Assembly (NCBI GenBank): GCA_973895155.1
Contig: OZ316895.1
Span: 14,194,225-14,258,224, forward strand
Reading direction: 5' to 3'
Origin: Marsupella aquatica
Taxonomy: Eukaryota > Plantae > Marchantiophyta
Length of the DNA stretch: 64,000 bases
Shown one piece after another: positions 2,199-59,200 of this stretch. Below the pieces are notes generated by a model that was not told the DNA's origin, did no database searches, and worked only from the letters and a program-made list of their open reading frames with translations. Position 1 is the first letter of the stretch, and every line of letters begins with the position of its first letter. Position numbers and translations under genes: made by a program.

Positions 2199-2230
2199 AA
2201 CAAGAAGCCTTAAATGATGAGTAACAAGCC
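2199..2230 (+). repeat. Terminal inverted repeat, transposase end, copy 1
   Basis: aacaagaagccttaaatgatgagtaacaagcc; 27/32 match to reverse complement of 10328-10359, first 15 bp perfect. Confidence 0.9.
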
Positions 2231-5700: not shown

Positions 5701-6157
5701 GCATTTGCTTCAGCCGCTGAACACTTTGCAGACTGCAAAAATCTCTGTCATTTTCCCCACTTAGTGCCTTCTTCGTCTTTCCAAATCCAGTCTTCATGAA
5801 TTCATGAGACCGTTTCCCAGACATCCAAATAGGCATTGAACCTTCCAGATTACTCCCCAATTTGTCCTTTGTTGGTGACAAAGGAGATACAACTTGACGT
5901 CCAGGGGGACCAATACTCTCCAAGGAGTCAGAGGAGCTCCCTGACCTCTCTTTACCACCGACCAATGATTTCTTCCCACTAATTGCAAGTCGTAAAGGAC
6001 TACGTTTTAACTTGCTCATAGGGGTGGGGGGTGGCATATCTAAAACAGTAGTTATTCCAGGGATATCTGGGCCAACCACTGTGCAGGGGCCATCCGGCAA
6101 TGAAACATCATCAGAAACTCCATCTGAATAATCATCTGATTCGTAACACGCCGCCAT
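2759..6157 (-). pseudogene. Sola1-like DDD transposase, 2 exons (6157-4591, 4491-2759), ~1099 codons with one in-frame TAG at 3791-3793
   Basis: ORFs 4541..6157, 3791..4477, 2759..3769 join in frame through a GT-AG intron (4590-4492, CTAAC branch site) and across one stop; motifs SACADC, IDGMDQKK..P, LYLQLDNTSRENKN, FLLVGHTHDQIDQMFS. Confidence 0.8.
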
Positions 6158-6700
6158 TGGAAAAACTAGTGCAAATTGACAGGAAACTCAGAAAATCAGT
6201 AAAATCTAACAAATGTTCTCAAAATAATGACCAAGAGTCATGAATAAACGAGCCTATTTATAGTTTTTCACGGATTGTTGGGACTTTTTAACTTCAAAAA
6301 TATCAAATATTCATGAAATTTGCAAGCTTTTTCCCGTTAATACCCCGAAATATTCATGAATAATTGGCCCAAAAACATTGATTTATCATGATTCTGGGTT
6401 AATTTTACTAAGTCGCGCCTGATCCGTGATTAGTATGTATAACCAAGGAACACGGGGCAGCCCATTCATTTTCACTCAATGTCATTTGGATTTCCTTTGT
6501 AAAAGAGTGAAAAACAATCTCGCTATCCAATTTCGTGCCATTTTCAGCACTCATCGGCGACGTGTCGCGAGTTGTCTCGGTCGCACTTCATTTCGACCCT
6601 GTTTTAGGTAGTAATTTAGGCCCTGGGTGATTTCTTCACGTCACCCCCCTCCAAACCCTATTTTAAATACCCTTCTGCATCACCGAGGTGTACAAGCAAA

Positions 6701-6811
6701 GAGAGAGGAGACTCCCTTCATGAATTCATGAAGGTCGGAGCGAGAGGGAGACTCCCTTCATGAATTCATGAAGGTCGGAGCGAGAGGGAGACTCCCTTCA
6801 TGAATTCATGA
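6701..6811. repeat. 40-bp tandem repeat (3 cores) containing the 20-bp palindrome CCTTCATGAATTCATGAAGG
   Basis: Unit cgagagggagactcccttcatgaattcatgaaggtcggag read directly; last core partial. Confidence 0.95.
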
Positions 6812-6976
6812 TAGGAGTCCTGGGGTGGCCGAGAGCGTTGTTAGATCCGTAAGGACACGGTTTTAGTAGCCATTTGTTGGCACATTCCTTGGTTCTGTGG
6901 CACTTTGTCTCGCAGGTTGGGGTTGAAGTGGACTGATTTTGTGGTATGTTCTCAGGTTTGAAGATCAGGCAAAAAC

Positions 6977-9900
6977 ATGACAATGTCGCAGGAAGAGCTG
7001 GTGGATGACATCTTTTCGCGCCATCCTTTGACGGACTTCCACAACTCATCCTGGACGATTTCCTTAGGGACGGAAACATGGAAGAAGCCCTTCCTAATGC
7101 TGTGTGTATTTGAGGGGCTTCCATCGGGGGCATTAGGGTGGGTAAATTACGGCCGCATCGATGTATTTCGACGGGGCGACGAAGTTGTGAACATGTTGAT
7201 CACAACGAAGGAAACATCAACTTTGATTGTCGTGGATGTGGAGAGGTTTTCTGGAACGGCTGCCACCTGCTATCTCGATGAGGACATCGATAGCATCATT
7301 GAGACTGTCAAGTCTCTTTCGAGTGAGGAACGTTACCACGACATCGCGGGAAAGATTTCCGGTTTTGTGTTTGAATTTCACGCTAGCACTTTAAAGAGTG
7401 CAATCCGAAAATCAAGAGAGATTCTCCGGAAAAGGTCGGCAGAGAAGGGAGTAAGTCGTCCACCCAAATCTGGGGCTTCCGGTGTTCCTTCTGGATCGAG
7501 GCCTAGCATTTTACCCGATGATATTTTGACCGTGGTAGCGCCTACAACCTCCCGGGAAGCAGCAGCATCTGGAGGGGGATCTCAAGTTGGCAGATCATCC
7601 CAGGGAACGGCTTTGACTGGTGGGTCGGCACAAGGTACGACTGGAACTCGCATTTCTTCAAAGAAGCGACCTGCTATGACTCCTGAGCCTACCGAGCCCA
7701 GTGCTACAAAGTCAAAAAAGAAGACTTTGGAGAAAATTCCAACGCATTTGGAGCAAAAGGCTCAATCAATGTCAATGGATGCACGGGTATTGTACCAGGA
7801 GGAGATTCTGGGAAGATGTGGTGTTCAAGAGGAGACCGTGACCGTTGACATTGGTCAACTTTACCCTCCAGTGAGAGAGAAGGCTGTGGGCTTGCCCATT
7901 TACCAGGTCCGACACATCCAACCATATTTCTTGACCCAATTGACCTTGCGGATGAAGACTGTAGGTGCCAGTCCACTTGCAGCTTCGTTTGTCCTCTTGG
8001 TGGATCCGAAGGAGTGTGCTACTAGGCAAGACTTTGATTTTTCAAGGAAAGCTGATTACCATTATTATGTGATTGGGGGCAACCATTCAGCCTGTGCCAA
8101 AGCAGACCTTGCTCTTCAGTTCCCTAACAACAAGGCATTTTGGAGAGTGCAATCTTGGATATTTGCGGGATTGAGTGTGCAAGAGGCAAGAAACCTTGCG
8201 TGGAGTCACAATATTGATTCTGAATTTCGACAACAGATGACGACAATCCAGAGAGTAAATTATATTCACATGAGATTTGTTGAGAATGGATTGTCGTCCA
8301 ACCAGGATTTCAAGAAAGAGTGTGCTACTGAAATCAATCTCAAGGATTGGGGTGTACGAAAGGATGCTGAGGTTCTTAATGCCAATGATAACCTATTTCA
8401 GTTGGCATTCCGACAAGATCCTGTGTGGTCATTTGTGAGGCAGATTTGTGACAAGTGGGAGATGTGTGAGATCAAAGGTCAAAAAGGAGACAAAGGCAAG
8501 AAGAAAGTCTCTAAGTCTGGAGATGCCAAATTGCCTTATGAGGACATGAAATTAACAGAGTGGAGACACATGCAGGCCTTGAAAGATCCTGATATGATTT
8601 GCCCAGTGTTACAGAGAGTTCTTACTAAAGAACTCTCTTTACAGGAAATGGGTCACGAATTTACTCGACACAAATTTCAGATGCAGGTGCAGAAGGCCCT
8701 CCTCACGTGTCTACACGAGGAGAGTTGGTCAGGTTGTAAAACCAAGTACCCTGAGCATTGCACAGACAATGTGCTTAAGAATTTTGTACCTGTTTTCCAG
8801 ACATGGGTAAGATTCTGTCACCTTTCTTTGAATGATTGTTTGAATTCATTTAATATTTGGAATCCTTGTTTCTAATTCTACAGTTCCTTTTTGTAGAAAG
8901 ATACCACCTCCCGGAAAAAGAAGGGAGATGAGGAAGGCAAAGATCTCAAGTCATTCCCGGACAAATTCAATGCGCATATTGTGCAAGCCCAAAATTGGCT
9001 ATCCATGAAGACTTCTAGTCGGCAAACCCAAGAGGGGGAACTTCATCCAAATTCGTTTGAGCATCCAGAGTTTGGTGATGTGCACTATGATATTTTTACT
9101 CATGATGCTCAGCGATTACATGAGGTGGTTCCGGGTCGGGCTTACACATTAGCTTTAGTGGATATTCCCTACGGGTTTGCATTGCCTGGATGTCTTCATG
9201 AAGACACTATTGGATGGGGAACTGAGGAGATCACAAAAATGGTCCAATCGTTCAAGGTGGCTACTACTGCAAAGTTGTGGCGTATTATCATTCACCACAG
9301 CCTTGACCAATATGAGGCCATCAAGACCATTTTGAAAGCGGAGTGTAATGGAGGGTTCCAGAATTGTGTGTGGTAAGAAATATTTGTTTTTGAAAAAAAC
9401 AACTATTAGTTATTCATGATTTCATGAACCATGTTTCTCAGTTTAAATAACTCCTTGACTTTTTGTGACTTTTCAGGGTTAAGGATAATGTGAAGAATGC
9501 TGGTGGACCAAGATTGAACAGCAACTTTGAGTGCTTTACAATTGGCTTTCACAGCCAGGATGGTAAACGGTCATTGGAGCACTTCAATTTTGACACAAAT
9601 GAATCAAGGAACAATGTGGTTGTATGCGCAGCTGTGACTAAGAAGCTGAAACACAACGGGGATAACAAGGCAGTGAATGTTTATCAGAAACCACGTGCAT
9701 TGTTAGATTGGGAAGTGAGTCATTTTAGTCAGGTTGGAGACTGGGTTTTGGATATTTGTTCAGGATCAGGGACTGGGACAACCTCCTCCTTGGCCATGGG
9801 GAGATATTGCGTTGCCATTGAGATTGACGAGCGACAGAGCAGTGTGTTGAAAGGGAGGATTCTTAACCTTGCAGATAACATTGAAGAGGAAGACGGACAG

Positions 9901-10038
9901 GGGGAGATGGATGAGGAGAGTGAGGAAGACATTCCTCAGGCCGGAGAGGATAGCGTGGTTGACGATGCCACAATTGTTCTAGAATTGACGACAGGGACTT
10001 CCGGAACCGAGGAAGGGGAAGCGGTCCCTTTGGATTAG
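6977..10038 (+). CDS. ParB/Srx-like domain fused to beta-class N6-adenine/N4-cytosine DNA methyltransferase, 3 exons (6977-8806, 8897-9372, 9477-10038), 955 aa
   Basis: Two GT-AG introns (8807-8896, 9373-9476) join the three ORFs in frame; motif IV-like LALVDIPYG, VWVKDN across intron 2, YQKPRALL, motif I VLDICSGSGT, GRYCVAIEID; YYVIGGNHS resembles the ParB/Srx core. Confidence 0.85.
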
Positions 10039-10327
10039 ACTAGATAAATAGAGGGACTCGTAGCATGTGAAACCACTTGGGCTTAAGTTGGGTTATATTT
10101 TGTAAAACTTTGAGTTTGACTTAAACTCTGATCGATGAGTTTGATTTTGATTACTTTTATAAAGTGCATATTTCAAGGTTTATACAATTGTGAGAATATC
10201 ATATAAGATATGCTTAGATTTTGGTGGTAAAATTCTCTTGAGTCTAGTTTGGAAAATACATACCATTTTTTGGTGGTTTTTTGGTATACACTTTTTAATA
10301 TCATGAAGATTTTGAAAAGAGAAATAA

Positions 10328-10359
10328 GGCTTTGGACTCATCCCTTAAGGCTTCTTGTT
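10328..10359 (-). repeat. Terminal inverted repeat, methyltransferase end, copy 1
   Basis: ggctttggactcatcccttaaggcttcttgtt. Confidence 0.9.
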
Positions 10360-10779
10360 CTTGCTTCTGCTAAGCTCCTTACCGTCATCTTATCAGGGCT
10401 TGAAACAGGTGCTCTTGTACAAAGATCTGAAGTCCATTTTGTATGATGAGGTGGTGAGCTCTTTACTGTCTGATGATGCTCCGAAGAAGTTGGGTCAAGC
10501 ACAGACAACATCTTCTTCTGCGTTGAATGTGAACCGTGGAAGATAGACTAGCGCAGTGCACGAATGGGCATAACAGATTGAGATCTACATCACGGGGGAG
10601 ATCTAAATCCAGAGGGAAATCGCAAGAGAGGAAGCCTCTTGCATGTTGAAGATGTGGTAAGCTTGGCCACATGGAAAGGGATTGTCGAGTAAAGGACCCT
10701 ACCCCATTAGCTAACGCGGTATCAAGCGCACATGAGGTAGATTTACTCGATGATGATGACATTTTATGATGCCAAGGTT

Positions 10780-20700: not shown

Positions 20701-23700
20701 ACTCTTCACCCTAGTATCCAAACACTTAATCGTGTTTCTTGTCTGATTCTCCACTTGGGCGTTTCACTTTGTAAAAATGGACAAGACATCAGACTTATGC
20801 GTCATGAAATAAATCCATACAAATCTCGAGTAATCGTCAATGAAGGATAGATAGTACAATTTTCCAGAATGTGAGGGAGTCAGGGATGGTCCCCACACGT
20901 CACTATGTATGTACTCGAGAACCGCTTTGGAACGATGAGTTCCAACACCGAAAGCACGACGATGTTGCTTTCAAAAAATGCAATGCTCACATAAATCCAA
21001 TTTACAAGATTGCAAATCATAAATGAGCCCATTATTCCGCAAGATAGCCAAACCCTTCTCACTCATGTGGCCTAACCGTGAATGCCATAGTTGAGTCATT
21101 TCCTTGTGAGACTTGGTTACATTGGCCTCTCCACATATTGTATTGCCCTGTAGCACATACAAATTCTTCTGTCTGCTCCCCTTCAAAATCATTGTCTCTC
21201 CCGAAATGACTTGAAGTTCACTATCAATTACTCGCCATTGATGACCATTTGTATCCAACACACCGAGTGAAATCAAATTCTTACGCATGCCAGGTACAAA
21301 CCTGACTCCGGACATTGTGCGCACAATGTCATCAAACATTTGAATCTTTATAGACCCAATACCCTCAACTCGAAAGGAGTGATCATTTCTCATCAAAACT
21401 GAACCGTTTGACACAGAATAAGAATTGAAATACTCGCGAATGTAACAAATGTGAAAGGAGCAAGCACAATCAAGAATCCACACATTGTTTGCTCTCCTAG
21501 ATGATGTGCACAGGGCATACTCCTGGTTTCATAAAACATACTCATCATTGAGTAAATAAACTTCTCCATCAGCACTAGTCACATTGGCTGATGAAGATTC
21601 AGTTGCCTTACCCTTACAATCCCTCTTAACGTGACCAACCTTGTGACACTTCCAGCAGACTACTGGCTTTCTCTCCTAGGACTTCCCCCTGGAAGCAAAT
21701 CTTGTCCTAGATTTACTTCGTCCCTTGCCATTCATGCGCTGCTCGGGATGCCGCTGTGACCTCCCACGATTCACATTCAAGGCAGCACCAGATGATGATG
21801 CTGTCTGGGCTTGACCCAACTTCTTTTGTGCATCATCTGACAGCAAAGAGCTTACCACCTCATCGTATGAAATAGACTTCAGGTCTCTATACAAGAGAAC
21901 CTGCTTCAAACCCTGATAAGATGGGGGTAAGGAGCTGAGAAGAAGCAAGGCCTTGTCCTCTTCTTCAACGCCCTTACCAAGATTAGACAAATCAACAGCT
22001 AGGCTATCAAATTCATCCAAGTGATCCTAGAGCTTGTTCCCTTCTTTGAGCCTATGGCTCATCAAGAGAAACTTCTTGTACAATCGATCGGATGCATCCT
22101 CCCGATACTACTTCTCCCTTAGGGCTTTGAACAGAGATGCACAATCCGCATAGTCATCCAACTTCTTGATGATATGCGGCTTCAGATAAAGCATCACCGC
22201 ATTCACTGCAATTACTTGTTCCTGCCTCCACCTCTTTAGTGGAATCTCCTCCTCGTCATCGTACATCTCTCGTGTAGAGAGAAGATGATCTAGGTCCATA
22301 GCGCGAAGAACTCCTTTTACTTGCTTCTCCTAGAGCAAGTAGTCCGTCCGTCCATCATACTTTTCCACCTCAAACTTGACACCTCCGAACCTGGATGCCA
22401 TCTCTATTTTCTTCACAGCCCCCTCTACTCGCTGCATCGGTGATCGTACCAGTGTCACATTTGCTTCCTCCTGCTCCTCTCTCTCCACCTCAAATCGTCG
22501 TGGGTGATCCTTGTATTTCAAGCTCCACGTCTTCAAAAATCTCCTCCGAATCACTCATGTGAGAATGCAAGAAAAAATGATGTTTTTCTCAACTTCTCCA
22601 AAAAACTCAAAACTTATCACCGCCATGTAGCCCATAAGCCTAGCTTTCCAATGCTGAAAACCAAAATCAAAACTGAACTCCGACGTAAAAGTTATTCACT
22701 TTTTGGTCGGGGTGGGTAAAACTTGGAATTCTCCCCCGTGTTGACCACCTTGGGGAATAACCAAAATGTGAACTAGTACCCGGCGTCGGAAATGCAATTC
22801 AATTTGTGCACTGCGTTGCCAACTCCGATGGCTAGCAACTTGCCGAAGATGAACGAAAAAAGTTACCGTTTGGCGGACGAAATCTTTGACGGACGGCCAA
22901 AAACATGCTCTTTGTTTTTTGGGAATATTCCCGCATAGAGCAGCAGGTCCCACAGGGGGCCATTCCCCCTGTCCAAGCGGTTAAAGTGGAGGGCAGCAGG
23001 TCCCGAGATGCAGAAGCCAATGGGGAGGAAGGAAAATAAATAAAAATTAAGGCCTAAAGGGGGTTTAAAGCCCCTTTACAAAAAACAGGTGTATAGCCGG
23101 GGTGTATGGCGGGGCCAGGCACAAGATACGCGCACGGAGGGCGTATGGGGCGGTAGCAGCCGCGAAGTTGCAAGGCCGGGCCGCGAGCCGGGAAGGGGGA
23201 CCAGCCGGAAGCCAAGTCCGGAAGGGGGGTGCGAGGGTGTAGCGCGGGGGCAGCCTGCGGGCTGCAAGAGGCAGCCGGAGGTCACGGCCGGTCGGCGCGG
23301 GGGGGTTGAGGTGCCCGTGGGAGGCCGTTGTGTGGCCAAGCAGGCTGCCGGGTCGCGACGGGGAGGGGAGGGGGACGACGTACGTAGGGAGGGTGGGGGT
23401 GAAACGTGTGTATACACATGCGTTTGTGTGTGCACACACCCAAATGTGTGTGTATACACAAAAGTGTGTGGACCCCTCCAAAAAACACAAAGGAAATGGC
23501 CACCAATGTTCCCAAATTCACCTCATCACCGGCAAGGGCCCTAAAGAAAAATTTCCCTCCAATGTGCAATGGAGGTCGAGAGAGAGAGAGCCGTAAATGG
23601 AGTACTTTTCAAACAAAAAATTTGCTCGTAAGAAATCCAAAAATGCTTGTGGACATCAAACGAAAAGAGCTTGCACTTTGTAACGTTCGGATTATGGTGA

Positions 23701-24589
23701 GGAATCAAAAACCGATGTCGGTGAGTTGAAAAGATTTGCGCACCCGCACCGTTTTCTGGTCAATCAGTGGCAAAAACTCAGAACTCCTTCCTCCCGTGGG
23801 CAAAACCGTCAATCTTGGACTCAAAACGATCACCTCTTCGTGATCTCTCCGTTCAGCCCAAGTACTTCACGTCTCTCCCTCCGAGTCGAGTGCAACGACA
23901 AGAAATCCCGCTCAGGCAAAAGAAGACTCCATAGCCGGTCAGAAAATCAGAACGCTTCTTTTTCTCGTCTCGTCGCACACGGTACTCACTTGGTAACAAA
24001 TTAGCTACCAAAATGACCAGCTTGTCCCGATCTACAAGCGGAGCTATAGTATGTGACGTCTCCTTCACCGTAGAGCTCACACCATTGAGTAAACAAACTC
24101 TGGTCCCTCCTCCGAAAAACCGTCGAACACGAATGTTGTCAACTTTCTTCACAAAATACAGAACGACAAAAACTTAGATCTCTCCGCACCACGAGCTCCG
24201 TTCAGCGATTTCTTCACACCGTTAGAAAGCCCTCGCCCCAATCTATCCGTTGAGCCCATAAACTCCAAGTTCCACGCGACGAAACTCCAAGAAATCCACC
24301 GACACTCAATGCTAGAAAAAACCGTCACGAACAATGTCACCTCCCAGGCATGCTCTAATACCAATTGTTGAGCATAGACGACACTCATAACGGTAAGCAC
24401 ATGACACATCCAACGAGCAAGTAGTCGACACAAGAGATACGTGGTTCACCTCCTCGAGGCTACATCCACGGGAACACACAAGAGAGCTTTACTGAACTCT
24501 AAGCCCGTCGGCTAAACCAAGTCTCCGACTATGGTTAGTCTAACTACGGTTATATGTCATAACCCTAGACCTTGAGTAAATATCTAACA
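17743..24589 (-). mobile_element. Full-length degenerate Ty1/copia element C
   Basis: 3' LTR 17743-18084, 5' LTR 24366-24589, 5-bp TSD CTGCC, PBS TGGTATTAGAGC (24352-24363), PPT AAGGGGGAGAT, gag-PR-INT-RT-RH order. Confidence 0.95.
18278..22401 (-). pseudogene. gag-pol: gag-pol of copia C with stops and frameshifts
   Basis: MASRFGGVKFEVEKY start, CWKCHKVGHVKRDC, WILDCAC, KARLVAKGFTQ, LYGLKQSP, LYVDD, CDSQSA. Confidence 0.92.
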
Positions 24590-24931
24590 CTGCCACCTGT
24601 TAAGGATTGTTCTTAGTCTTGTGACTCATAGATTACGGTACTTAGGCTAACCACAGTTAGGATCTTAGCTGAGGTTAGGTTAGTCATGTGTGACCTTATA
24701 TATACCAGGGCTAGTGTAAGCCGCTGACGGGTGGTGCTTACTCATTGTAACGGAGCAACTTGAGAAAGAGGGAGAGCATGTGTGTTCGTCTACTCTTGAA
24801 GTAAAGCTTGAGTGTTCGTGTGGATGTAGCCAGGGAGAAGAGGTGAACCACGTAGAGATTGTGTCGACTACGTGTGCATGGAATGAGTCATGGTTGTATG
24901 GTCGTTGCGAATGACGTCTTAGTTCAACAAT

Positions 24932-24943
24932 TGGTATCAGAGC
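24932..24943 (+). promoter_or_regulatory. Primer binding site (tRNA-iMet) of copia D
   Basis: TGGTATCAGAGC two bases after the LTR end. Confidence 0.92.
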
Positions 24944-26773
24944 AAGCCTGGGAGGTGACGTTAAGGTGATCAAAAATTTTGTGACGTGTTGGTGACGATT
25001 TTTCCAGCGGTTAGAGTTAGTGGATTTCACGGAGTTCCGTCGCATGGAACTTGGAGGTGTAGGGCTCAACAGATAGATCGGGGCAAGGGCTTTCCGACGG
25101 TGCAAAGAAATCTCTTAACGAAGTTTGTGGTGCGGAGGAATTCATGTTTCCATGGTTCTAGATTTTATGTGATTCGTGTTCGACGGTTTTCTCCGACGGT
25201 TCTTTCGGGGGGACCTGAGATCGTTTACTCAATGGTGTGAGATTTGTGGTGGACAAGGTGACGCATACTATAGCTCAAATCGTAGATCGGGCAAAGCTGA
25301 TCGTTTTGGTAGCTGGTTTGCTCTCGAAGGTATAGCGAGTGCGACGTTCCGAGCAAAAGAGCCGTTCTCAGTTTCTGACCGGCTATGGAGACATAGCCTT
25401 GGCTGAAGCAGGTTTCTCGATGTCACACTCGGCTCGGGGGGAGAATTGCAAAGTACTATGGCTTCACGGAGAGATCATGGCGACGTGATCATTCTGAGTC
25501 TGGGATTGGCACTTGATGTGCAATGAGGGAGACACAGCGGAGATTTTATGTTGCTGGACCTGCTGACGGCAAAGGGGAAAATCCAGAAATATTTTTCATG
25601 TCGGTCGGCACTTTTCCTATTTGAAACGACATCTGTTTAGTGAGTAACCCAGGCTTTTTTGTTTAAGCAAATTTGTGATTTTTTAAAGGGGTTTAAGGGC
25701 CATTTTTTGTGTGTGTATACACACATCGGCTGGCCCCATACTCTTGCTTACCCGGTATACGGTCCCCCCTGCACGCGCATAGGGCGCAAATTTACTCGCG
25801 GCCACCTCCCCCTCCCTCGCGACCCTTCGCCTCCCCTCTTTATTGCATCATAGGGCCCCGTGCCCTCCCTCCTGCATCTCCTCTTTACTCCCGGCCATCC
25901 CCCCTCCCCCTTCGCGTGCGCGTATAGCGCCTTGACACCTCACCCCCTTCTTACATGCTACATAGGGCCTCATGCCCTCCCTCCTGCATACGCACTCGCT
26001 CCCCTACCTCCCCTGCCTTAATGCTCCATAGGGCCTCGTGCCCTGTCTTGGCGCCCGTATAGGAGCACGTATTTGCGCCTCCCTCTCGCAGTACTCTGCC
26101 TGGCCCGTCACGCGTATAGGCGATGCGGATGTGCCTTTTTTATTATACCTGTATTTTTTTAAAAGGGATTCCCCCCCTTTAGGGCAATTTTTCTTTTTTC
26201 TCTTCTTTCTCCCATTGGCTAAGCGGCAACCCGGGCCCGGTGACCCGGCAATTTAACCGCTCCGACAGGGGGAATGGCCCCTTGTGAGACCTGCCGTACA
26301 GTCCAAGGAATATTCTGAAAAATCAGAGAGTTGTTTTTTGGACTTTAGTCAAAGATTCCAACGTCGGAATGGTAACTTTTTTTGGATCTTTTTTGGCAAG
26401 GACGTAGCCACTGAAGCTAGCAACGCGGTGCACCACTCGATTTGCATTTCCGACGACGGGTGGTACTTGGAATTTTTTCTTATTCCCCGAGGTGGTCAAA
26501 ACAGGGGAGAATTTTATGAGTTTTACCCACCCCGACCGAAACATGAAAAAGTTTTTTGTTAGAACTCGGTTTCAATTTTGGATTTCAGTGTTGGCTTGCT
26601 AGGTTGGTGGGCTAAGTGGCGGTGATAAGTTTCAAGTTTTTTGAAAAGTTGTGAAAAACGAAGTTTTTTCATGATTTGGATTTGAGTCAACGGGACGGAA
26701 GGAAGGAAAAAGTGACAAAAGGATACAAGGAGCGACAAAAAACTAGCACGTGGAGATCGTCGGGAGGACAACG

Positions 26774-27467
26774 ATGGCATCCAAGTTTGGAGGTGTTAAG
26801 TTTGAGGTGGAAAAGTATGATGGGCGCACGGATTATTTGCTATGGGAGAAGTAGGTTAAGGAAATTCTTCGTGCTATGGGCCTAGATCATCTGCTCTCCA
26901 CTCGGGAGGAGTCTAGCAGTGAGGAGGAGATCCCGTTGAGGAAATGGAGGCAGGAGCAAGTGATCGCTGTGAATGCGGTTATGTTATATTTGAAGCCGCA
27001 TATCATTAAGAAGCTGGACGATTACGAGGATTGCGTATCCTTATTCAAGGCCCTTAGAGAGAAGTACTACCGAGAGGATGCCTCAGATCGATTATACAAG
27101 AAGTCTCTCTTGATGAGCTTGAGGCTAAAAGAAGGAGGCAAGCTTCGAGATCACTTGGATGAATTCGACAGCCTAGCTGTAGATTTGTCAAATCTTGGCA
27201 AGGGAGTGGAAGATGAAGATAAGGCATTGCTTCTTCTCAGTTCCTTACCTCCATCGTATCAAGGTTTGAAGCAGGTTCTCTTGTATAGAGATCTCAAAAC
27301 CATTTCATATGATGAGGTGGTAAGCTCTTTGTTGTCAGATGATGCACAGAAGAAACTGGGTCATGCCCAGACACCATCTTCATCTGGCAGTGCATTGAAT
27401 GTTAACCGCGGAAGGACTCAACAACGGATGACTGGTGAAAATAGGTCCTTTTCACAAATGTACCCCT
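26774..27467 (+). pseudogene. gag: gag of copia D, 5' part (continues at 35673-35881)
   Basis: MASKFGGVKFEVEKY..., one TAG near the start; removing 27468-35672 gives in-frame ...QMYP-SRNRGKEK... Confidence 0.9.
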
Positions 27468-27788
27468 AACAAGAAGCCTTAAGGGATGAGTCCAAAGCCT
27501 TATTTCTCTTTTCAAAATCTTCATGATATTAAAAAGTGTATACCAAAAAACCACCAAAAAATGGTATGTATTTTCCAAACTAGACTCAAGAGAATTTTAC
27601 CACCAAAATCTAAGCATATCTTATATGATATTCTCACAATTGTATAAACCTTGAAATATGCACTTTATAAAAGTAATCAAAATCAAACTCATCGATCAGA
27701 GTTTAAGTCAAACTCAAAGTTTTACAAAATATAACCCAACTTAAGCCCAAGTGGTTTCAAATGCTACGAGTCCCTCTATTTATCTAGT

Positions 27789-30700
27789 CTAATCCAAAGG
27801 GACCGCTTCCCCTTCCTCGGTTCCGGAAGTCCCTGTCGTCAATTCTGGAATAATTGTGGCATCGTCAACCACGCTATCCTCTTCGGCCTGAGGAATGTCT
27901 TCCTCACTCTCCTCATCCATCTCCCCCTGTCCGTCTTCCTCTTCAATGTTATCTGCAAGGTTAAGAATCCTCCCTTTCAACACACTGCTTTGTCGCTCGT
28001 CAATCTCAATGGCAACGCAATGTCTCCCCATGGCCAAGGAGGAGGTTGTCCCAGTCCCTGATCCTGAACAAATATCCAAAACCCAGTCTCCAACCTGACT
28101 AAAATGACTCACTTCCCAATCTAACAATGCACGTGGTTTCTGATAAACATTCACTGCCTTGTTATCCCCGTTGTGTTTCAGCTTCTTAGTCACAGCTGCG
28201 CATACAACCACATTGTTCCTTGATTCATTTGTGTCAAAATTGAAGTGCTCCAATGACCGTTTACCATCCTGGCTGTGAAAGCCAATTGTAAAGCACTCAA
28301 AGTTGCTGTTCAATCTTGGTCCACCAGCATTCTTCACATTATCCTTAACCCTGAAAAGTCACAAAAAGTCAAGGAGTTATTTAAACTGAGAAACATGGTT
28401 CATGAAATCATGAATAACTAATAGTTGTTTTTTTCAAAAACAAATATTTCTTACCACACACAATTCTGGAACCCTCCATTACACTCCGCTTTCAAAATGG
28501 TCTTGATGGCCTCATATTGGTCAAGGCTGTGGTGAATGATAATACGCCACAACTTTGCAGTAGTAGCCACCTTGAACGATTGGACCATTTTTGTGATCTC
28601 CTCAGTTCCCCATCCAATAGTGTCTTCATGAAGACATCCAGGCAATGCAAACCCGTAGGGAATATCCACTAAAGCTAATGTGTAAGCCCGACCCGGAACC
28701 ACCTCATGTAATCGCTGAGCATCATGAGTAAAAATATCATAGTGCACATCACCAAACTCTGGATGCTCAAACGAATTTGGATGAAGTTCCCCCTCTTGGG
28801 TTTGCCGACTAGAAGTCTTCATGGATAGCCAATTTTGGGCTTGCACAATATGCGCATTGAATTTGTCCGGGAATGACTTGAGATCTTTGCCTTCCTCATC
28901 TCCCTTCTTTTTCCGGGAGGTGGTATCTTTCTACAAAAAGGAACTGTAGAATTAGAAACAAGGATTCCAAATATTAAATGAATTCAAACAATCATTCGAA
29001 GAAAGGTGACAGAATCTTACCCATGTCTGGAAAACAGGTACAAAATTCTTAAGCACATTGTCTGTGCAATGCTCAGGGTACTTGGTTTTACAACCTGACC
29101 AACTCTCCTCGTGTAGACACGTGAGGAAGGCCTTCTGCACCTGCATCTGAAATTTGTGTCGAGTAAATTCGTGACCCATTTCCTGTAAAGAGAGTTCTTT
29201 AGTAAGAACTCTCTGTAACACTGGGCAAATCATATCAGGATCTTTCAAGGCCTGCATGTGTCTCCACTCTGTTAATTTCATGTCCTCATAAGGCAATTTG
29301 GCATCTCCAGACTTAGAGACTTTCTTCTTGCCTTTGTCTCCATTTTGACCTTTGATCTCACACATCTCCCACTTGTCACAAATCTGCCTCATAAATGACC
29401 ACACAGGATCTTGTCGGAATGCCAACTGAAATAGGTTATCATTGGCATTAAGAACCTCAGCATCCTTTCGTACACCCCAATCCTTGAGATTGATTTCAGT
29501 AGCACACTCTTTCTTGAAATCCTGGTTGGACGACAATCCATTCTTAACAAATCTCATGTGAATATAATTTACTCTCTGGATTGTCGTCATCTGTTGTCGA
29601 AATTCAGAATCAATATTGTGACTCCACGCAAGGTTTCTTGCCTCTTGCACACTCAATCCCGCAAATATCCAAGATTGCACTCTCCGAAATGCCTTGTTGT
29701 TAGGGAACTGAAGAGCAAGGTCTGCTTTGGCACAGGCTGAATGGTTGCCCCCAATCACATAATAATGGTAATCAGCTTTCCTTGAAAAATCAAAGTCTTG
29801 CCTAGTAGCACACTCCTTCGGATCCACCAAGAGGACAAACGGAGCTGCAAGTGGACTGGCACCTACAGTCTTCATCCGCAAGGTCAATTGGGTCAAGAAA
29901 TATGGTTGGATGTGTCGGACCTGGTAAATGGGCAAGCCCACAGCCTTCTCTCTCACTGGAGGGTAAAGTTGACCAATGTCAACGGTCACGGTCTCCTCTT
30001 GAACACCACATCTTCCCAGAATCTCCTCCTGGTACAATACCCGTGCATCCATTGACATTGATTGAGCCTTTTGCTCCAAATGCGTTGGAATTTTCTCCAA
30101 AGTCTTCTTTTTTGACTTTGTAGCACTGGGCTCGGTAGGCTCAGGAGTCATAGCAGGTCGCTTCTTTGAAGAAATGTGAGTTCCAGTCGTACCTTGTGCC
30201 GACCCACCAGTCAAAGCCGTTCCCTGGGATGATCTGCCAACTTGAGATCCCCCTCCAGATGCTGTTGCTTCCCGGGAGGTTGTAGGCGCTACCACGGTCA
30301 AAATATCATCGGGTAAAATGCTAGGCCTCGATCCAGAAGGAACATCGGAAGCCCCAGATTTGGGTGGACGACTTACTCCCTTCTCTGCCGACCTTTTCCG
30401 GAGAATCTCTCTTGATTTTCGGATTGCACTCTTTAAAGTGCTAGCGTGAAATTCAAACACAAAACCGGAAATCTTTCCCGCGACGTCGTGGTAACGTTCC
30501 TCACTCGAAAGAGACTTGACAGTCTCAATGATGCTATCGATGTCCTCATCGAGATAGCAGGTGGCAGCCGTTCCAGAAAACCTCTCCACATCCACGACAA
30601 TCAAAGTTGATGTTTCCTTCGTTGTGATCAACATGTTCACAACTTCGTCGCCCCATCGAAATACATCGATGCGGCCGTAATTTACCCACCCTAATGCCCC

Positions 30701-30850
30701 CGATGGAAGCCCCTCAAATACACACAGCATTAGGAAGGGCTTCTTCCATGTTTCCGTCCCTAAGGAAATCGTCCAGGATGAGTTGTGGAAGTCCGTCAAA
30801 GGATGGCGCGAAAAGATGTCATCCACCAGCTCTTCCTGCGACATTGTCAT
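27789..30850 (-). CDS. ParB/Srx-like + beta-class N6/N4 DNA methyltransferase, copy 2 (exons 30850-29021, 28930-28455, 28350-27789), 955 aa
   Basis: Mirror of 6977-10038; open frame, same splice sites, DIPY and DICSGSGT intact. Confidence 0.85.
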
Positions 30851-31015
30851 GTTTTTGCCTGATCTTCAAACCTGAGAACATACCACAAAATCAGTCCACT
30901 TCAACCCCAACCTGCGAGACAAAGTGCCACAGAACCAAGGAATGTGCCAACAAATGGCTACTAAAACCGTGTCCTTACGGATCTAACAACGCTCTCGGCC
31001 ACCCCAGGACTCCTA

Positions 31016-31166
31016 TCATGAATTCATGAAGGGAGTCTCCCTCTCGCTCCGACCTTCATGAATTCATGAAGGGAGTCTCCCTCTCGCTCCGACCTTCATG
31101 AATTCATGAAGGGAGTCTCCCTCTCGCTCCGACCTTCATGAATTCATGAAGGGAGTCTCCTCTCTC
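31016..31166. repeat. 40-bp tandem repeat (4 cores) with 20-bp palindrome, copy 2
   Basis: One more unit than 6701-6811, accounting for the 40-bp length difference. Confidence 0.95.
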
Positions 31167-31604
31167 TTTGCTTGTACACCTCGGTGATGCAGAAGGGTAT
31201 TTAAAATAGGGTTTGGAGGGGGGTGACGTGAAGAAATCACCCAGGGCCTAAATTACTACCTAAAACAGGGTCGAAATGAAGTGCGACCGAGACAACTCGC
31301 GACACGTCGCCGATGAGTGCTGAAAATGGCACGAAATTGGATAGCGAGATTGTTTTTCACTCTTTTACAAAGGAAATCCAAATGACATTGAGTGAAAATG
31401 AATGGGCTGCCCCGTGTTCCTTGGTTATACATACTAATCACGGATCAGGCGCGACTTAGTAAAATTAACCCAGAATCATGATAAATCAATGTTTTTGGGC
31501 CAATTATTCATGAATATTTCGGGGTATTAACGGGAAAAAGCTTGCAAATTTCATGAATATTTGATATTTTTGAAGTTAAAAAGTCCCAACAATCCGTGAA
31601 AAAC

Positions 31605-31612
31605 TATAAATA
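31605..31612 (+). promoter_or_regulatory. Putative TATA box of the transposase gene
   Basis: TATAAATA ~105 bp upstream of ATG 31710 (mirror at 6255-6262). Confidence 0.45.
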
Positions 31613-31709
31613 GGCTCGTTTATTCATGACTCTTGGTCATTATTTTGAGAACATTTGTTAGATTTTACTGATTTTCTGAGTTTCCTGTCAATTTGCACTA
31701 GTTTTTCCA

Positions 31710-34700
31710 ATGGCGGCGTGTTACGAATCAGATGATTATTCAGATGGAGTTTCTGATGATGTTTCATTGCCGGATGGCCCTTGCACAGTGGTTGGCCCAG
31801 ATATCCCTGGAATAACTACTGTTTTAGATATGCCATCCCCCACCCCTATGAGCAAGTTAAAACGTAGTCCTTTACGACTTGCAATTAGTGGGAAGAAATC
31901 ATTGGTCGGTGGTAAAGAGAGGTCAGGGAGCTCCTCTGACTCCTTGGAGAGTATTGGTCCCCCTGGACGTCAAGTTGTATCTCCTTTGTCACCAACAAAG
32001 GACAAATTGGGGAGTAATCTGGAAGGTTCAATGCCTATTTGGATGTCTGGGAAACGGTCTCATGAATTCATGAAGACTGGATTTGGAAAGACGAAGAAGG
32101 CACTAAGTGGGGAAAATGACAGAGATTTTTGCAATCTGCAAAGTGTTCAGCGGCTGAAGCAAATGCCAAAAAGTAAAACCTTTGGTAAGCCAACGTCGGA
32201 AACATTTCACAGGGGGATGAGGGAAGAAACTAGACGACCAGTGTTATTGAAAAGTATTCCAGAAAAGAATTCTAATGTGCGTTCCTCAGTTTTACCTAGG
32301 AGTCATGGTGTTGGGGCAGGGAGCGGATCAAGTCACGGAAACTCAAACAGGGAAACCAACCTGGTGGAGAGGGACCCTAGGAAAATATTGAAAGGGTCCC
32401 TACACGGTAATGGAGGGATTTCTGAAATACGCCCAGGTATTCCAAGGGTGCATAGAGTGAAGGAAGAGCCTCCATCTCCGAAGGCTGCAGGTCTGGAATC
32501 TAGGCATGTTCAGAAGCAAATGTTGGTGACCATTTCATCATCGAATGAAAGCGAGTCTTCGGAGAGTGGGGAGGATGATGATGTTCCGGTGGCATCTAGT
32601 CGTTACAAACGTACGAGCAACGCCACTTTGTGTGAAACAAAGTTGAAAGAGGAGGATATCAAGAAAACAAATAGTAAGTACTGTTGTCAGAGTCATTGTC
32701 TCCTAAGTCTATCTCCAAAAGAAATTCGTGAGGCCCGTTCTAAATTTTTGAGGCAGAAATCTCAGGATCGATCTTTATCTTTGCAGTGGCTTATAAAGCG
32801 AGACGGAAATGAAGGAGGGAGGCAGACTATATCTTACACGTTTGGTCAAAAGATTATTTGTCGGAAAGCTTTCAAGCTTATATTTTGCGTTGGCAATCAT
32901 AGATTAAATAGAATTTTGAAATTAGACAACCAAGACTTAGGATATTCTAAACCAGTTGGACGCCCTCCATCTGTTAAAAGATTAGTCTTGGTCAGTTGGC
33001 TTAGGTCGTTTTTTGAGACACGCGTGGAAACATTGCCAAATAAAGAAGTTTCACATTTACCGGATAATTATTCAAAGCTGGAGGTATGGAAGATCTACGA
33101 CTCCAACTATGCCAAGATTGATGAATCTTCAAAAATATCCTATCGACAATTCTTGAAAGTTTGGGTTCAAGAATTTGGTCATGTGAAGATTCCTCCAGTC
33201 AATCGATTCAGTGCTTGCGCGGATTGCGAGGAGTTCAAATCAATTCGGGACAAAGCTGTCTCGGACACCGAAAAGAGTAAGTTGCTTACAAGTTTGACAA
33301 GTTTTTGTTTCAAGAATATGGCTTAACACATGATTTCTAATTTTTTTTGAAGAAACTAACAAGTTGTTTTTCCAGGGCGAGGGGAAATTATGTTACAAAA
33401 ACATAGAGACCAACAATCCAAAGAACGTGAGAAACTCGCGAAGCATCGTAAGAAATGTTTTTCAAATTCTGATAAATATTTGGGAGTTGTCATTGATGGG
33501 ATGGATCAGAAGAAGACAAGGTTGCCTCATTGGCCGCGGCCCCCAAAATCGGTGGACGAAACATGTTTGATCCAAATGCACATTGTCGGATGCCTGGTTT
33601 TCAATGGTGCACTATTTTCAAGAGTGTTTCTTAATTATCCTGTATTGCATAATGATGGAAACTTGACAGTCACAATCCTGCAAAGGGTGTTTCACGAATG
33701 GGAAGAAAAGCCTGGTGGCTTGCCGCCTGTTCTCTATCTTCAACTTGATAATACCAGTAGAGAAAATAAAAATAATTTACTCTTTGCCTATCTTCATATG
33801 TTGATTCGAAGAAAGGTTTTTTGGAAAATCAAACTAGGATTCTTGTTGGTTGGACACACACACGACCAAATAGATCAAATGTTCAGTCAATTTTCTAAAC
33901 GACTAGCAAGGTTTAAGGCATTCACATACGAAAGCCTATGTGATATTATTTGTGAATCATATCAACCCCAACCAAATATCGCTCTTTTAAAGGAAACATA
34001 TGATTTCCGTCAATATGCCTTCTCAGATCCACCTTTAGTCATTGAAAGGATTCGAAATGTTACCTTCCACCACTAGTACAAATTTGCATTTGACAAGTTG
34101 GAAAATCAAGTTCCAACCCAATGGGGGAAGAAGTTTTCCACGGACTCAACTTGGAAACCTGACGGAGGCGTGAAATTTTTGAGGGAAGAGGAGCCAGAAA
34201 AGGTGATGGGTTGTGCTCCCGGATTACCCCTTTTCAAAAAGGGGGATAAGAACGTTACAAGGACTCAACCAAATATGTCTAGTTCTTCAAGAATGACTTT
34301 GAAGGAGATGGATGATTCGTTAAATGAGATTCAAAAGGGAATACTTGCAGTTGAAACTTTATTCTTAGAAGAGGAAGTGAACTGGTGGAGAATGTTTTTT
34401 GAAGAGCAACGGGAATTGAATAAATCTTTGCTCCTTGATCAAAGACCATTGATTTTCCCTTTTCAATGGCCACGCTCCCAAAGGGAGATTGCTGTTGCTG
34501 CTGAAGTTCCCAGAGTCCTTGTCAATGAAGAGGAAATTGAAGAGAGAGTATACGGACCTACCAGAGATATATACGTGGGTCCTTATCGGAATCAAGGAAA
34601 GATAGATGCAGAGAAGGAGAATATGGAAGGAGACTTTTCGGATCTTGAAGTCAACACTTATATTTCTGTTGCTGGAGAAGAATCGGAAACATTTTGGGTG

Positions 34701-35108
34701 GCCAAGGTGGAAAGAATTGACCAGCGCGACGAGTTCAACATTCCAAAAATGATTTATGTTTTATGGCATGCTCCAAAAACCGGGTCAGATCCTTGGAAAG
34801 CCAAGTACTTACCAGAAGTCTTAAACTACGAAAAGAAGAAAAGTGGTCGTGGGAAAGGAACTTTGAAACCAATATGGTTTCACCAAGAGCTTGATTTATC
34901 TTCAACGACTGTTTTTGCTTACAACTTCATGTTGACAAAATCTGATACATTGTACAAAAAGATAGTAGATCGAATCAAAATCCGATTGACTGAATTTTTG
35001 GCAGAAGAGAAAGAGCAAGAACAAGAGAATGGATCAACTAGAACCCCGCTAGGAGATAAATCTAGGGATATTTTGTTTCAAGAATTGAGAACTTCTGGAT
35101 CTGAGTAA
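31710..35108 (+). pseudogene. Sola1-like DDD transposase, copy 2 (exons 31710-33276, 33376-35108; in-frame TAG at 34074-34076)
   Basis: Donor A|GTAAGT at 33277, branch ACTAAC, acceptor TTTTCCAG at 33375; spliced frame ...TEKRRGEIMLQKH...; same motifs as copy 1. Confidence 0.8.
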
Positions 35109-35881
35109 TGAAAAGTAGTTATTGTTTGTGACATTACCATTGAAAAACATGGATAACTTGAAAATTTACAAATTTTCAAAATGCCTTTACCACTTATTCA
35201 TGAATTCATGGTTAAAGTTTCTTGAGAAATTTGTAGTTTAATATTATCTTAGTGGGTTGTGTTTCAATTCAATTAGATGGTGTCATTTCTATTCTCCTTG
35301 TCTTCTTTTCACAATAATGTGTATCAGGTTAAGTTGTAGTAATTTATTTTCTGGTTTTTAAATGACAATGGCTTTTGGAGGTGATTTAGTTGTTGTTTCA
35401 AAAGACACCTCGTGTAATTGTGAGACCATTGTAGATAATAGTGTTGTATTTGAGATCATTTATTGGTGGAATGTAACTTCAGATGAATTTGGTCATTTTT
35501 AGGTGTCAAAACATAGCTAGTTTATGTCATATTTTGTTCGCTCCATATTTTTGCTCTAAAATAGGTGCTAATTTTTGCACTTTTTTTGACTTTTTCGTTG
35601 TTTTTCTGATTTTTTGGCTAGAGTTCCTAAAGTATGGGCTTGTTACTCATCATTTAAGGCTTCTTGTTCCCTCACGGAATAGAGGTAAGGAGAAGGCTCG
35701 GTCTAAGTCTAGATCCAGGTCTAGAGAGAAATCTCTAGAAAGGAAACCAATTATATGCTGGAAATGTAACAAGCCTGGCCACATGAAACGAGACTGTCGA
35801 GTCAAGCAAACTCATCAACCATCAGCAAACGCAGCCACTGATGTTGATATGATTGACTTGCTTGATGATGAAATCTTTTGA

Positions 35882-52749: not shown

Positions 52750-53235
52750 AAAAGATGTCGTGACGGCCAAGATGTCGTTCCCGATGTCCTTGAGAACAAA
52801 AGAGGTCATGTCGGCCAAGAGGTTGTTGAGAATAAAGATGTCATGTCGGCCAAGAGGTAGTTGAGAAGAAAGGTGTAGTGTCGGCCAAGAGGTCGTTGAG
52901 AAGAACGATGTTGTGTCGCCCAAGATGTGAGAACAAAAGATGTTGTGTTGGCCAAGATGCTGGTGATAACAAAAGATGTCGTGTCGGCCAAGAGGTCATT
53001 GAGAAGGAAAATGTCGTGTTGGCCAAGAAGTCGTTGAGGACAACAGATGTCATGTCTCCCATTCAAGATGTTATTAAGAAAAAAGATGTCGTGTCATCTA
53101 AGATGTCATTAAGAAAAACAAATGTTGTGTTGCCCAAGATGTTGTTGTTTAAAAAAAAAGATGTGGTGTCACCCAAGATGCCGTTAAGAAAAAAAGATGT
53201 GGTGTCGCCCAAGATGTTCTTAAGAAAAAAATCTT
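52750..53235. repeat. ~35-bp tandem satellite, about 13 degenerate units
   Basis: Consensus approx AAAGATGTCGTGTCGGCCAAGAGGTCGTTGAGAA(N). Confidence 0.9.
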
Positions 53236-56268: not shown

Positions 56269-59200
56269 TCAAGTATCATGTGGAGCAGCAGCCTCCACGG
56301 TCATCATGCGTCGCACGCTCCGTAGTCCAATCGCCTGGCAGTGTCGGTGATGGACTGATGGTGATAATGATTTGGTGAAGAGATCCACACAGTTGTCTGC
56401 ACTTGAAATCTGCAAAATGTTGATCTCTTTTCCATGTAACTCGTGAGTGTAGAAAAATTTCGGAGCTATGTGCTTCACGCGATCACCTTTGATAAACCCT
56501 AAACCCTAAACCCTTCACGACCCTTCACGACCCTTCACGACTAGCCTCATGTAACGGCTTCACGACTAGCCTCATGTAGAGCTAAGATTTCTGAGTGATT
56601 CGATGAGGTTGCTGTTAGGGTTTGTTTCACGCTTTTCCAAGAGAAAGCGGTACCCCCTATGGTAAAAACATATCCGGTTTGGGATTTTGCGGTATCAGTG
56701 TCGGAGAGGTATCCGACATCCGCGTATCCTATTAGCTCGTGGTTTGCACCGAATGAGTAAAATAACCCGGTATCGGTGGTTCCACGTAGATATCTAAATA
56801 CGTGCTTAACTCCATTCCAGTGTCTGGCTGTGGGAGTTGCACTATGTCTGGCTAGTAAGTTAACTGCAAATGCAATGTCTGGTCGTGTCTGATTTGCTAG
56901 ATACATTAATGCTCCTATTGCGGAAAGATATGGTGTTTCTAGTCCTAATAGTGGTTCATGTTCTTCGCGCTTGCGAAAAACATCAGTATTATTTTCTAAT
57001 GAACGTACAACCATTGGTGACGTCAATGTGCTAGGTTCATATTGAACTGTTTTAGGATCTTTTCGGTTTGTGTGGTCTGATGGAGCATCATGCCAGTGGG
57101 TAGGATCTCTAGTTGTAAGCCTAAGCAAAAGTTTGTATGTCCAAGGTCTTTCATCTCAAATGTGGATTTAAGACTGGTAATAGTATCTTCTGTAAGTTGG
57201 GGTGTCCCAAATATATTTAAGTCATCAACATAAATAGAAACGATGACATATTCATCATCCACATGTTTAATAAATAAACATGGTGTAATGGCATCATGGG
57301 AAAAACCCATGGCAATCATTTCATCAGTAAATCTTTGATACCATACTCTGCCACTTTGTTTCAGACCATATAATGCCTTCAACATGCAGATAGCTAGTCC
57401 ACGGCGAGTATTCCGTACGGTTGACACAGCGGTGTCATTATTATGAGTTACATGTGTAGATGACACATGAGGTGTAACTTGAGATAATTGTGTGATAATC
57501 TTATGTAAATATGGGATATGCGATTTAGCGCCTTGAGCTAAGGCTCGGCGTCGTTGCTCCAACTCGGGAGGTGATCGCATGTATAGACAAGTGTCTAAAG
57601 TTCCATATAGATATGCGGTTGCAACATCCAGTTGTCGCATTTGTAGTTTATGGAAAATGGCAAATCCGATAAGGTATCGGAATGTTGTGCTATCCATAAC
57701 CGGTGAGTAAGTTTTATCGTAATGAATTCCCGGTTGTTGGGTAAATCCTTTCCCTACCAGACGTGCTTTGTAGCGTACAACTTGGCCTTTATCATTTCTT
57801 TTGTGGACGAATGTCCACTTGTAGCCAATGAGGTGTACGTCTTGCGGTGTTGGCTCGACTGGGCCAAAAGTGTGTCTGCTTAGTAGGAAATCTAATTCTC
57901 CGTTTATAGCTTTTTGCCATTCAGGCCAATCTGGTCTGTTTTGGCATTCTAAGATGGATATTGGTTCTGGTGTTTTGTCTGTGATATGTGTTGCCACCAT
58001 TAATGCAAAAGCATCATCTATTGAAGTAGTATTTCTATCCCACATCGCACCTGTGTCTGCGTAGTGGATAGAGATCTCTTCATGGGATGTAGATTCGGTA
58101 TGATTGACATCAGGTGAAGGTGATATAGATGAACCACGCCTTCGTGGTTGTTTATCTTTTGATCCCAAGGGTCTACCTCGTTTTGCACGAGGTTGGGATG
58201 TACTTGCTGGCTCACTTGATAATTCGATGCGAGCAGATGCTCTCGCAGCTGGAATATGTGAGCGGGTAATTTGTGATGTGTCAATGAAAGCGTCAGGAAG
58301 TTCTTCCACAATCTTGTGGAGTTGCAGAATTCTTTGAACTTCTTTCTCCCCTTGATTCGTTCTAAGGTCTTGCCAAAATGGCGAGTGTCTTTCCCACTCC
58401 AAAGGTGGTTGTGGGTGTTCGGGGGTTTAGGGTGATGTGCAGAAGTCATCAAATGTTTCGGATGTGAATTCCCCTGCATTGTCCACCCTTAGTGTCTTAA
58501 TGGGGTGGCCTGGGAATTGTGCTTTCACGCGCAGGATTTGCGCCAAGATACGAGGCATAACCATGTTCCTCGTTGAAAGCAATGTCACATTTGACCATTT
58601 AGTTGATGCGTCGATTAATACCATGAAGTAGCGAAAGGGTCCGCTCGGTGGGTTGATCGGCCCGCAACATCGGCGTGGATTATTTCCAAGAATTTGGGTA
58701 TTTTGGTTGGCAATTTTGATGCCGTGGGCCTTGTTATTAATTTTCCGCGTGAGCATGCAGTGCATGGGATGCTAGCTGGAATGTGGCGTGTATTGATTGG
58801 AATGCCACTTGAATTCTTAAGTATTTTGCTTAGCATTGATTGGCCGGGGTGGCCAAGGCGTGCATGCCAAAGCGCGGACAATTCACTTGTGTTGGCATTG
58901 TTATGCAAGCATTCAATATGAGTTACATAAAACCCGCAGGGGTACGAGAAAAGGGTTTCTTTAATGATATTCCCCGTAGGGGTATTTTCAACCAAGTGTA
59001 TCACTTCCTGATCTCTGGTATCGCCCGTCTGGACATGTAGTCCGTTTGCTCGTATATCTCTAAAACTGAGGAGATTACGCGTTACGTTCGGGGCAAAAAT
59101 AGCAGATTCTATGTGTATAGCTATACCCTGCGGGAGTCTAATGGAAGCTGGGCCAAAGCCCTCTTCTATTTGGCTAGGGCCATTAATAGTGGTTAGGGAT

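Follow-up and report, generated by a model that had tools for sequence, protein, structure and literature searches.

A young, likely Sola1-type transposon of the liverwort Marsupella aquatica carries a ParB-methyltransferase gene and a candidate palindromic recognition site

A 64,000-nucleotide stretch of the Marsupella aquatica genome (assembly GCA_973895155.1, contig OZ316895.1, positions 14,194,225 to 14,258,224 of the forward strand; hereafter the window, in whose own numbering coordinates are given) contains a cut-and-paste DNA transposon of 8,201 bp at 27468-35668. The element holds two head-to-head genes, gene A, for a protein that combines a ParB/Srx-type fold with an amino-methyltransferase domain, and gene B, for a transposase. 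A palindrome is repeated in the spacer between them and at several other places in the element, a layout that may allow the transposon to recognize and mark itself.

The ends of the element are well defined. Terminal inverted repeats (TIRs) lie at 27468-27499 on the plus strand, beginning AACAAG, and at 35637-35668 on the minus strand. Target-site duplications (TSDs) of CCCT lie at 27464-27467, inside a Copia gag, and at 35669-35672. The 32-bp TIRs listed in the first-pass annotation are indeed present at both ends, with an identity of 27 of 32 positions over the whole length and 15 of 15 at the tips. A 4-bp TSD combined with TIRs is a feature of Sola1. When the element is removed, the flanks form a single open Copia gag frame (PF14223), and the empty site itself is found in three of four public runs, as contigs that link 27463 to 35669 with 4 letters shared. 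The earlier description of a unit of about 8.2 kb, flanked by CCCT and interrupting gag, is confirmed on all these counts.

Position 27468 is also the exact breakpoint of contigs with unlike flanks in three of the four runs (5 in X1, 8 in X2 and 3 in X4; flank agreement 0.45-0.56), and the main contig of X1 begins exactly there. Depth is even across both genes in all four runs. In X1 it is about 480-620 across the whole element compared with 16-25 on single-flank contigs, which suggests a few dozen copies, read depth being no copy number. The element is young and has been recently mobile. A sister subfamily in X1, X2 and X4 has the first 60 bases of the element (27468-27530 region) with about 10 changes and a different interior, and a joint of 32077 to 35609 in X1, supported by 23 letters, may be a deletion derivative.

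Gene B, on the plus strand, has two exons. The first (31710-33276) encodes a low-complexity N-terminus and a Cys-rich region and has a palindrome at 32060; the second (33376-35108) encodes a DUF7869 core (E 1.9e-48) with the motifs DGMDQ, QLDN, NKN and GHTHDQID. The spliced gene has 1,099 codons with one stop, codon 756 (34074-34076 in the copy just described, copy 1), shared by a second copy of the element in the window. Codon 756 is Gln in gene B relatives and position 34074 is read as C, giving a sense codon, in all four public runs; the transposase is therefore disabled in the window copies and not in the family. This stop was absent from the first-pass annotation, whose two head-to-head genes are otherwise upheld, with GT-AG borders at every intron of both.

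Across 15 sequences from plants and animals, D40/D43, D124-N125, K131-N132, G159-H162 and D166 are invariant or nearly so, and the acidic triad and the DN, KN and GHTH motifs are kept across liverworts, ferns, Chara and marine animals. The catalytic core has the DDD-type arrangement named earlier, and the previous identification of a Sola1-like transposon is supported. We take the D..DN..KN..GH...D spacing to be of Sola1 type. From this spacing, the 4-bp duplication and an AAC terminus like that of the Ectocarpus element Sola1-1_Ec32, the DUF7869 transposase of gene B is likely of Sola1 type. A literature search found no paper using the name DUF7869.

Gene A is encoded on the minus strand in three exons (30850-29021, 28930-28455 and 28350-27789) and specifies 955 amino acids, free of stops in both window copies. 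Exon 1 encodes an N-terminal domain with a weak PH-like fold, a disordered linker, a ParB/Srx-fold domain and a helical region. Intron 1 (28931-29020, 90 bp) has a position common to relatives. Exon 2 carries catalytic motif IV (DIPY, residue 699), intron 2 (28351-28454) has a palindrome at 28400-28413, and exon 3 carries the methyltransferase motifs QKP and I (DICSGSG) and an acidic tail. The splicing pattern agrees with related genes: prokaryote-style gene calls of relatives stop at the first intron, three other loci with related elements (L001, L002 and L003) have the same introns, and one Calypogeia gene model crosses both exon junctions.

A structural model of exon 1 (P0001, predicted local distance difference test score, pLDDT, 68.8) gave six Foldseek matches at E<=0.001, all of them Noc or ParB, the best at 4.5e-5. 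The fold spans about residues 284-417, where PadC aligns with Z 8.7 and a root-mean-square deviation of 2.8 over 95 residues, and KorB is also among the matches. The helical region (411-596) resembles the DNA-binding domains of ParB, KorB and SopB weakly (Z 3.5-4.8). By its model, gene A carries a ParB/Srx-type fold. Neither exon 1 nor exon 2, searched singly as a profile against PDB sequences, gave a match. Residues ~25-143 of P0001 (30420-30780) form a well-modeled, conserved domain with weak PH-like matches (Z ~4); from the model, it could possibly be a chromatin- or protein-binding module. The nearest Atlas look-alikes of the ParB region (residues 260-615; window 29020-30085) are fungal DUF3723 proteins, at 0.95-0.96. 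DUF3723 is known as an accessory gene of Starship elements and may be a similar ParB-like self-recognition protein.

The methyltransferase domain of gene A is of beta-class arrangement, motif IV (DIPY 699) preceding motif I (DICSGSG 861), and exon 3 matches PF01555 (E 1.5e-8). A relative, P0137, 47-56% identical to the window exons, was modeled at pLDDT 81.5; its best matches are M.BceJIV and CcrM (E 5e-14 to 9e-14), and M1.HpyAVI was matched as well. Motif order, profile and fold agree with the initial assignment to the beta-class amino-methyltransferases. A profile of the family scores CcrM at 9e-21 compared with 2e-7 for N4CMT and 2e-6 for PvuII. In all 41 hits aligned across motif IV (154 examined) its first residue is D, and in 33 of the 41 the motif is DxP[YFW]; a few of these rows appear to be prokaryotic. 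DPPY has been described as typical of bacterial N6A enzymes and SPPY of N4C enzymes (PMC8885841). Because motif IV begins with D, this rule points to N6-methyladenine (6mA) rather than N4-methylcytosine (4mC) as the predicted product of gene A. The SPPY motif of 4mC enzymes of the N4CMT and MpDN4MT1 type was found in none of the 41, and a link of gene A to bdelloid N4CMT and Marchantia DN4MT1 finds no support. Purifying selection acts on all three domains, with a proportion of nonsynonymous differences (pN) of 0.17-0.29 compared with 0.71-0.83 for synonymous ones (pS) in 8 of 8 comparisons with L001-L003.

The 860-bp spacer that the two genes share holds, between their start codons, a tandem array (31016-31166) of 3.8 units of 40 bp, each with the palindrome TTCATGAATTCATGAA; its distance upstream of gene A is 166-316 bp. 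A subterminal palindrome with one mismatch lies at 35198-35211. The sequence TTCATGAA occurs 13 times in the 8.2-kb element and 0 times in the other 45.4 kb. CATG-N4-CATG is found 7 times in the element, against 0.15 in shuffles (0 of 200 shuffles). L001 has 6 such sites and L002 has 3 (0 of 200 shuffles for either), L003 has a single one (9 of 200), and the remainder of the window has 3 (3 of 30). All 11 exact TCATG-N4-CATGA sites of the window lie inside the two copies. Such a site is present in intron 2 of gene A in all four elements (that of the window and L001-L003). In the elements that include the DNA concerned, one also lies upstream of gene A (3 of 3) and near the start of gene B (2 of 2), and synonymous sites are saturated between the four elements that keep this placement. 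The cores among the four are AATT/AAAT, ATAT/ATTT, CTAG and ATAT. Because the form with a CTAG core exists, the constant part, judged from these sequences, is a 14-16-bp inverted repeat rather than a doubled 8-mer. In its size and symmetry it is similar to parS, Noc-binding sites (NBS) and KorB operators.

Gene A has many relatives. A profile of exon 3 retrieved 1,538 clusters at E<=0.001, of which 104 reach 1e-10. Of 20 relatives looked up, 8 had a species name (Chara braunii 4, Riccia sorocarpa 3, Ginkgo 1), and several hold the ParB region and the methyltransferase together. The best-scoring named relatives are in Calypogeia fissa for gene A and in a fern and Riccia for gene B. In L001 a head-to-head open reading frame begins like gene B, its contig ending before the transposase core; L002 and L003 are too short to show transposase linkage. 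In Riccia, R1sor_010795 (DUF7869) and R1sor_010796 (ParB and methyltransferase) are consecutive locus tags, and in two cases a relative of gene A comes from a contig of the same size as one that encodes a DUF7869 protein (8,829 and 8,915 bp). From the tags and these contig sizes we infer three further gene pairs. The pairing of transposase and methylase characterizes the family, whose relatives are found in Chara, liverworts and Ginkgo; in this respect the L001 layout, the Riccia tags and the even depth in all four runs substantiate the idea, raised in the first-pass annotation, of a family that carries its own methylase rather than a single capture.

Phage proteins match gene A at 23-29% identity, and 4 of the 25 tblastn matches listed are 'ParB-like partition protein' genes. 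A metagenome scan with the single gene A protein gave 0 of 60 stretches and one with an alignment gave 3 of 28; among viral contigs the count was 0 of 168. A quick, unfinished tree of 51 methyltransferase domains groups Chara, Riccia, Calypogeia and Ginkgo with support 87. It is unrooted and has long branches, includes no phage, N4CMT or DN4MT1 rows, carries 'noIV' labels that are partly trimming artefacts, and names no donor lineage for the methylase.

The second copy of the element is inverted and occupies 2199-10359 (8,161 bp, minus strand). Its left junction is its own: it lies in the gag of a different Copia copy, and the left flank differs from that of copy 1. The second copy shares the transposase stop, has an open gene A and one 40-bp repeat unit fewer. 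On its other side it repeats at least 2.2 kb of the right flank of copy 1, the likeness of 99.87% over 6,815 bp reaching the window edge. The copy reported earlier at these coordinates therefore exists; as an inverted duplicate with the right flank of copy 1 and no TSD, it is no clean separate insertion, and an independent TSD-bounded origin is ruled out. The copies show 26 differences, 23 of them transitions, and 17 of the 23 are at CG/CHG compared with a background of 26%. The differences are spread unevenly: the left 5.3 kb holds 22 of them and the right 5.1 kb has 4 (Fisher p 0.0006, for a split chosen post hoc). This clustering disfavors a single alternative-transposition event, and because of it recombination or conversion between two older insertions fits better. 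Copy 2 may also be an assembly chimera or mis-join.

Both left ends (27468 and 10359-10360) lie in gag of one Copia family. They face opposite ways and, with the two gag copies aligned, fall about 240 bp from each other, which may reflect a preferred target or mere chance, the nest being rich in Copia. To that nest, with at least 4 copies of one family, belongs a loose mirror at 21755-27420, made of two related Copia 5' regions back to back and 75-83% alike. Elsewhere in the window, 12.5 tandem units of 35 bp that are 74% alike form an array at 52783-53231, and a GC-rich 9/18-bp array at 59592-59702 lies within a Copia reading frame (58615-60081).

The ends, duplication and mobility of the element, its two genes, both folds, the intact motifs, the purifying selection and the conserved palindrome are matters of observation. 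Beyond them, we propose a model, to which we give a probability of about 0.55, where the gene A protein addresses and marks its own family. The ParB part would bind the TCATG-N4-CATGA palindromes, in the way that ParB, Noc and KorB recognize such sites, and would thereby bring the methyltransferase onto its own element; the enzyme, if active, would write 6mA there. The mark or the bound protein could then keep the shared promoter region usable against host silencing by 5-methylcytosine (5mC), by analogy with VANC of VANDAL elements. It is tempting to extend this, with more reserve, to a whole Sola1-type lineage from charophyte algae to liverworts and Ginkgo. In this tentative extension the lineage would use a phage-derived, ParB-parS-like addressing system, each protein reading its own 14-16-bp palindrome and writing 6mA on cognate copies; in land plants this would be a private mark opposing host 5mC, retargetable through the core of the palindrome.

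Several points weigh against self-marking. Motif IV of gene A is DIPY and not DPPY, 8 of the 41 aligned relatives depart from DxP[YFW], and some 4mC enzymes also have D-type motifs. The ParB signature is GGNH in 12 of 12 close relatives and GGGH in Chara-type relatives. The CTP (cytidine triphosphate)-binding motif of ParB is GxxR, and the residues found here suggest that, with its arginine missing, clamp sliding may be lost. The Pfam ParB family is unmatched in gene A exon 1 and in 11 relatives, so that of the profile and structure search for ParB/Srx proposed in the first-pass annotation the structural half succeeded, with Noc, ParB and PadC, and the profile half did not. The CATG-N4-CATG pattern was chosen after seeing the sequence, a post hoc pattern that three independent loci repeat, and 4 of the 7 palindromes sit in the one tandem array. 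As a caveat on mobility, several of the unlike-flank contigs at 27468 represent the sister subfamily, about 10 changes away in the first 60 bases. Given the excess of transitions at CG/CHG between the copies, host 5mC has reached them, and protection, if any, failed here. As a gauge of escape from silencing, observed/expected CpG points neither way, at 0.61 in the element compared with 0.28-0.47 in three Copia stretches and 0.80 in a fourth.

Other explanations share parts of this evidence. The gene A protein could be a brake or timer, acting like KorB on the array between the promoters so that binding or methylation limits transposase expression or ties transposition to replication, much as Dam methylation ties transposition of bacterial insertion sequences to replication. 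The place of the array just upstream of gene A in the shared spacer, the additional sites inside intron 2 and near the start of gene B, and KorB among the fold matches are in keeping with such a role. We nevertheless think it unlikely, as the intron and coding-region sites better fit marking of the whole element than a single operator and one full palindrome only lies near an element end. A similarly doubtful alternative is that the protein binds the element while its methyltransferase is a non-catalytic or RNA-directed reader, or a writer of 4mC, and that the palindrome may be a site for the transposase. The variant motif IV (DIPY here; DLPR, DIPS and DIPH in some relatives) would suit a reader or a 4mC enzyme, and a palindrome half-site 53 bp inside the left end would suit a transposase site. 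Against a reader or 4mC writer, purifying selection in the close family has preserved both motif IV and motif I, and fold and profile rank N6-adenine DNA enzymes first.

A one-off capture of gene A as a passenger is largely refuted, as is its origin from bacterial contamination, and we regard both as very improbable. Three other Riccia and Chara genes have no DUF7869 protein at the next locus tag among the best 120 of 141 transposase hits, as a capture would predict; they are set against two spliceosomal introns at positions common to relatives, the head-to-head layout in L001, even depth on both genes in all four runs, and closest phage matches as distant as 23-29% identity. Self-marking through the ParB region remains our preferred reading. 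In this compact, young, multi-copy land-plant element, with intact motifs and a candidate site of varying core, binding, the type of base modified and the effect on silencing are directly testable. If true, the model would add a writer of a non-5mC mark to the counter-defence of plant transposons and would provide a standing route for bacterial-type methylases into plant genomes.

The design itself has a precedent. PMC12477816 describes, in Ectocarpus, Sola1-1_Ec32 with an opposite-strand gene for a 1,104-aa ParB and N4C/N6A methyltransferase protein and proposes self-modification, so ParB-guided self-methylation by a transposon was put forward earlier for algae, and the view that a Sola element with this cargo had not been described has to be given up. 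Like Sola1-1_Ec32, the Marsupella element is of Sola1 type with a 4-bp TSD and AAC termini, and within its TIRs, on the strand opposite the transposase, it encodes ParB and amino-methyltransferase in one protein (955 aa here), the two proteins being likened by domain make-up. The Ectocarpus element, from a brown alga, measures 21.5 kb and has 282-bp TIRs, compared with 8.2 kb and 32-bp TIRs in a land plant, and palindromes and 6mA go unmentioned in the main text of PMC12477816. What is new is that the family belongs to a land plant, that its motifs are intact, and that a parS-like palindrome with a variable core stands in one and the same intron of all four elements. The available text of PMC9033089, PMC4455052, PMC5751038 and bioRxiv 2026.08.24.746577 holds no land-plant case of the design, and none was found in the literature searched; Iyer et al. 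2011, Bao et al. 2009, Repbase and bioRxiv supplements lay outside that search and may hold one.

Similar components recur in other settings. In Bostrychia, the accessory genes PAG2/PAG3 of Plavaka (EnSpm) elements are described in bioRxiv 2025.02.11.637652 as encoding a PF01555 methylase and a ParB-like protein, with inverted-repeat tandem arrays and a proposal of self-binding. These elements share with the Marsupella element a transposon-borne PF01555 methylase and ParB-like protein and inverted-repeat arrays beside the ParB gene; there, in contrast, the transposase is of another superfamily, and a methylase-SET protein and a ParB-2-oxoglutarate (2OG) oxygenase protein are encoded by separate genes. 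Chlorophytes have Dam-type enzymes fused to ParB-HTH (helix-turn-helix), and land plants few N6A methyltransferases, according to PMC4738411. Phage fusions of ParB with N6/N4 methyltransferases have the same two folds in the same order, at 23-29% identity, whereas gene A has introns, an extra N-terminal domain and GGNH.

Bdelloid N4CMT and Marchantia MpDN4MT1 are, like gene A, prokaryotic-type beta-class amino-methyltransferases in a eukaryote, but PMC8885841, PMC10406627 and bioRxiv 2021.02.12.428880 present them as SPPY/TSPPY 4mC host genes with a chromodomain or no extra domain, serving silencing or sperm. Gene A instead has DIPY, is fused to ParB and borne by a transposon, and its profile matches N4CMT much more weakly. 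A functional analogue is VANC of Arabidopsis VANDAL elements (PMC5735166), also a transposon-encoded accessory protein, whose sites are element-specific, often tandem and variable between relatives. VANC is an unrelated protein of Mutator-like elements, with no methyltransferase, and its removal of 5mC has been tested.

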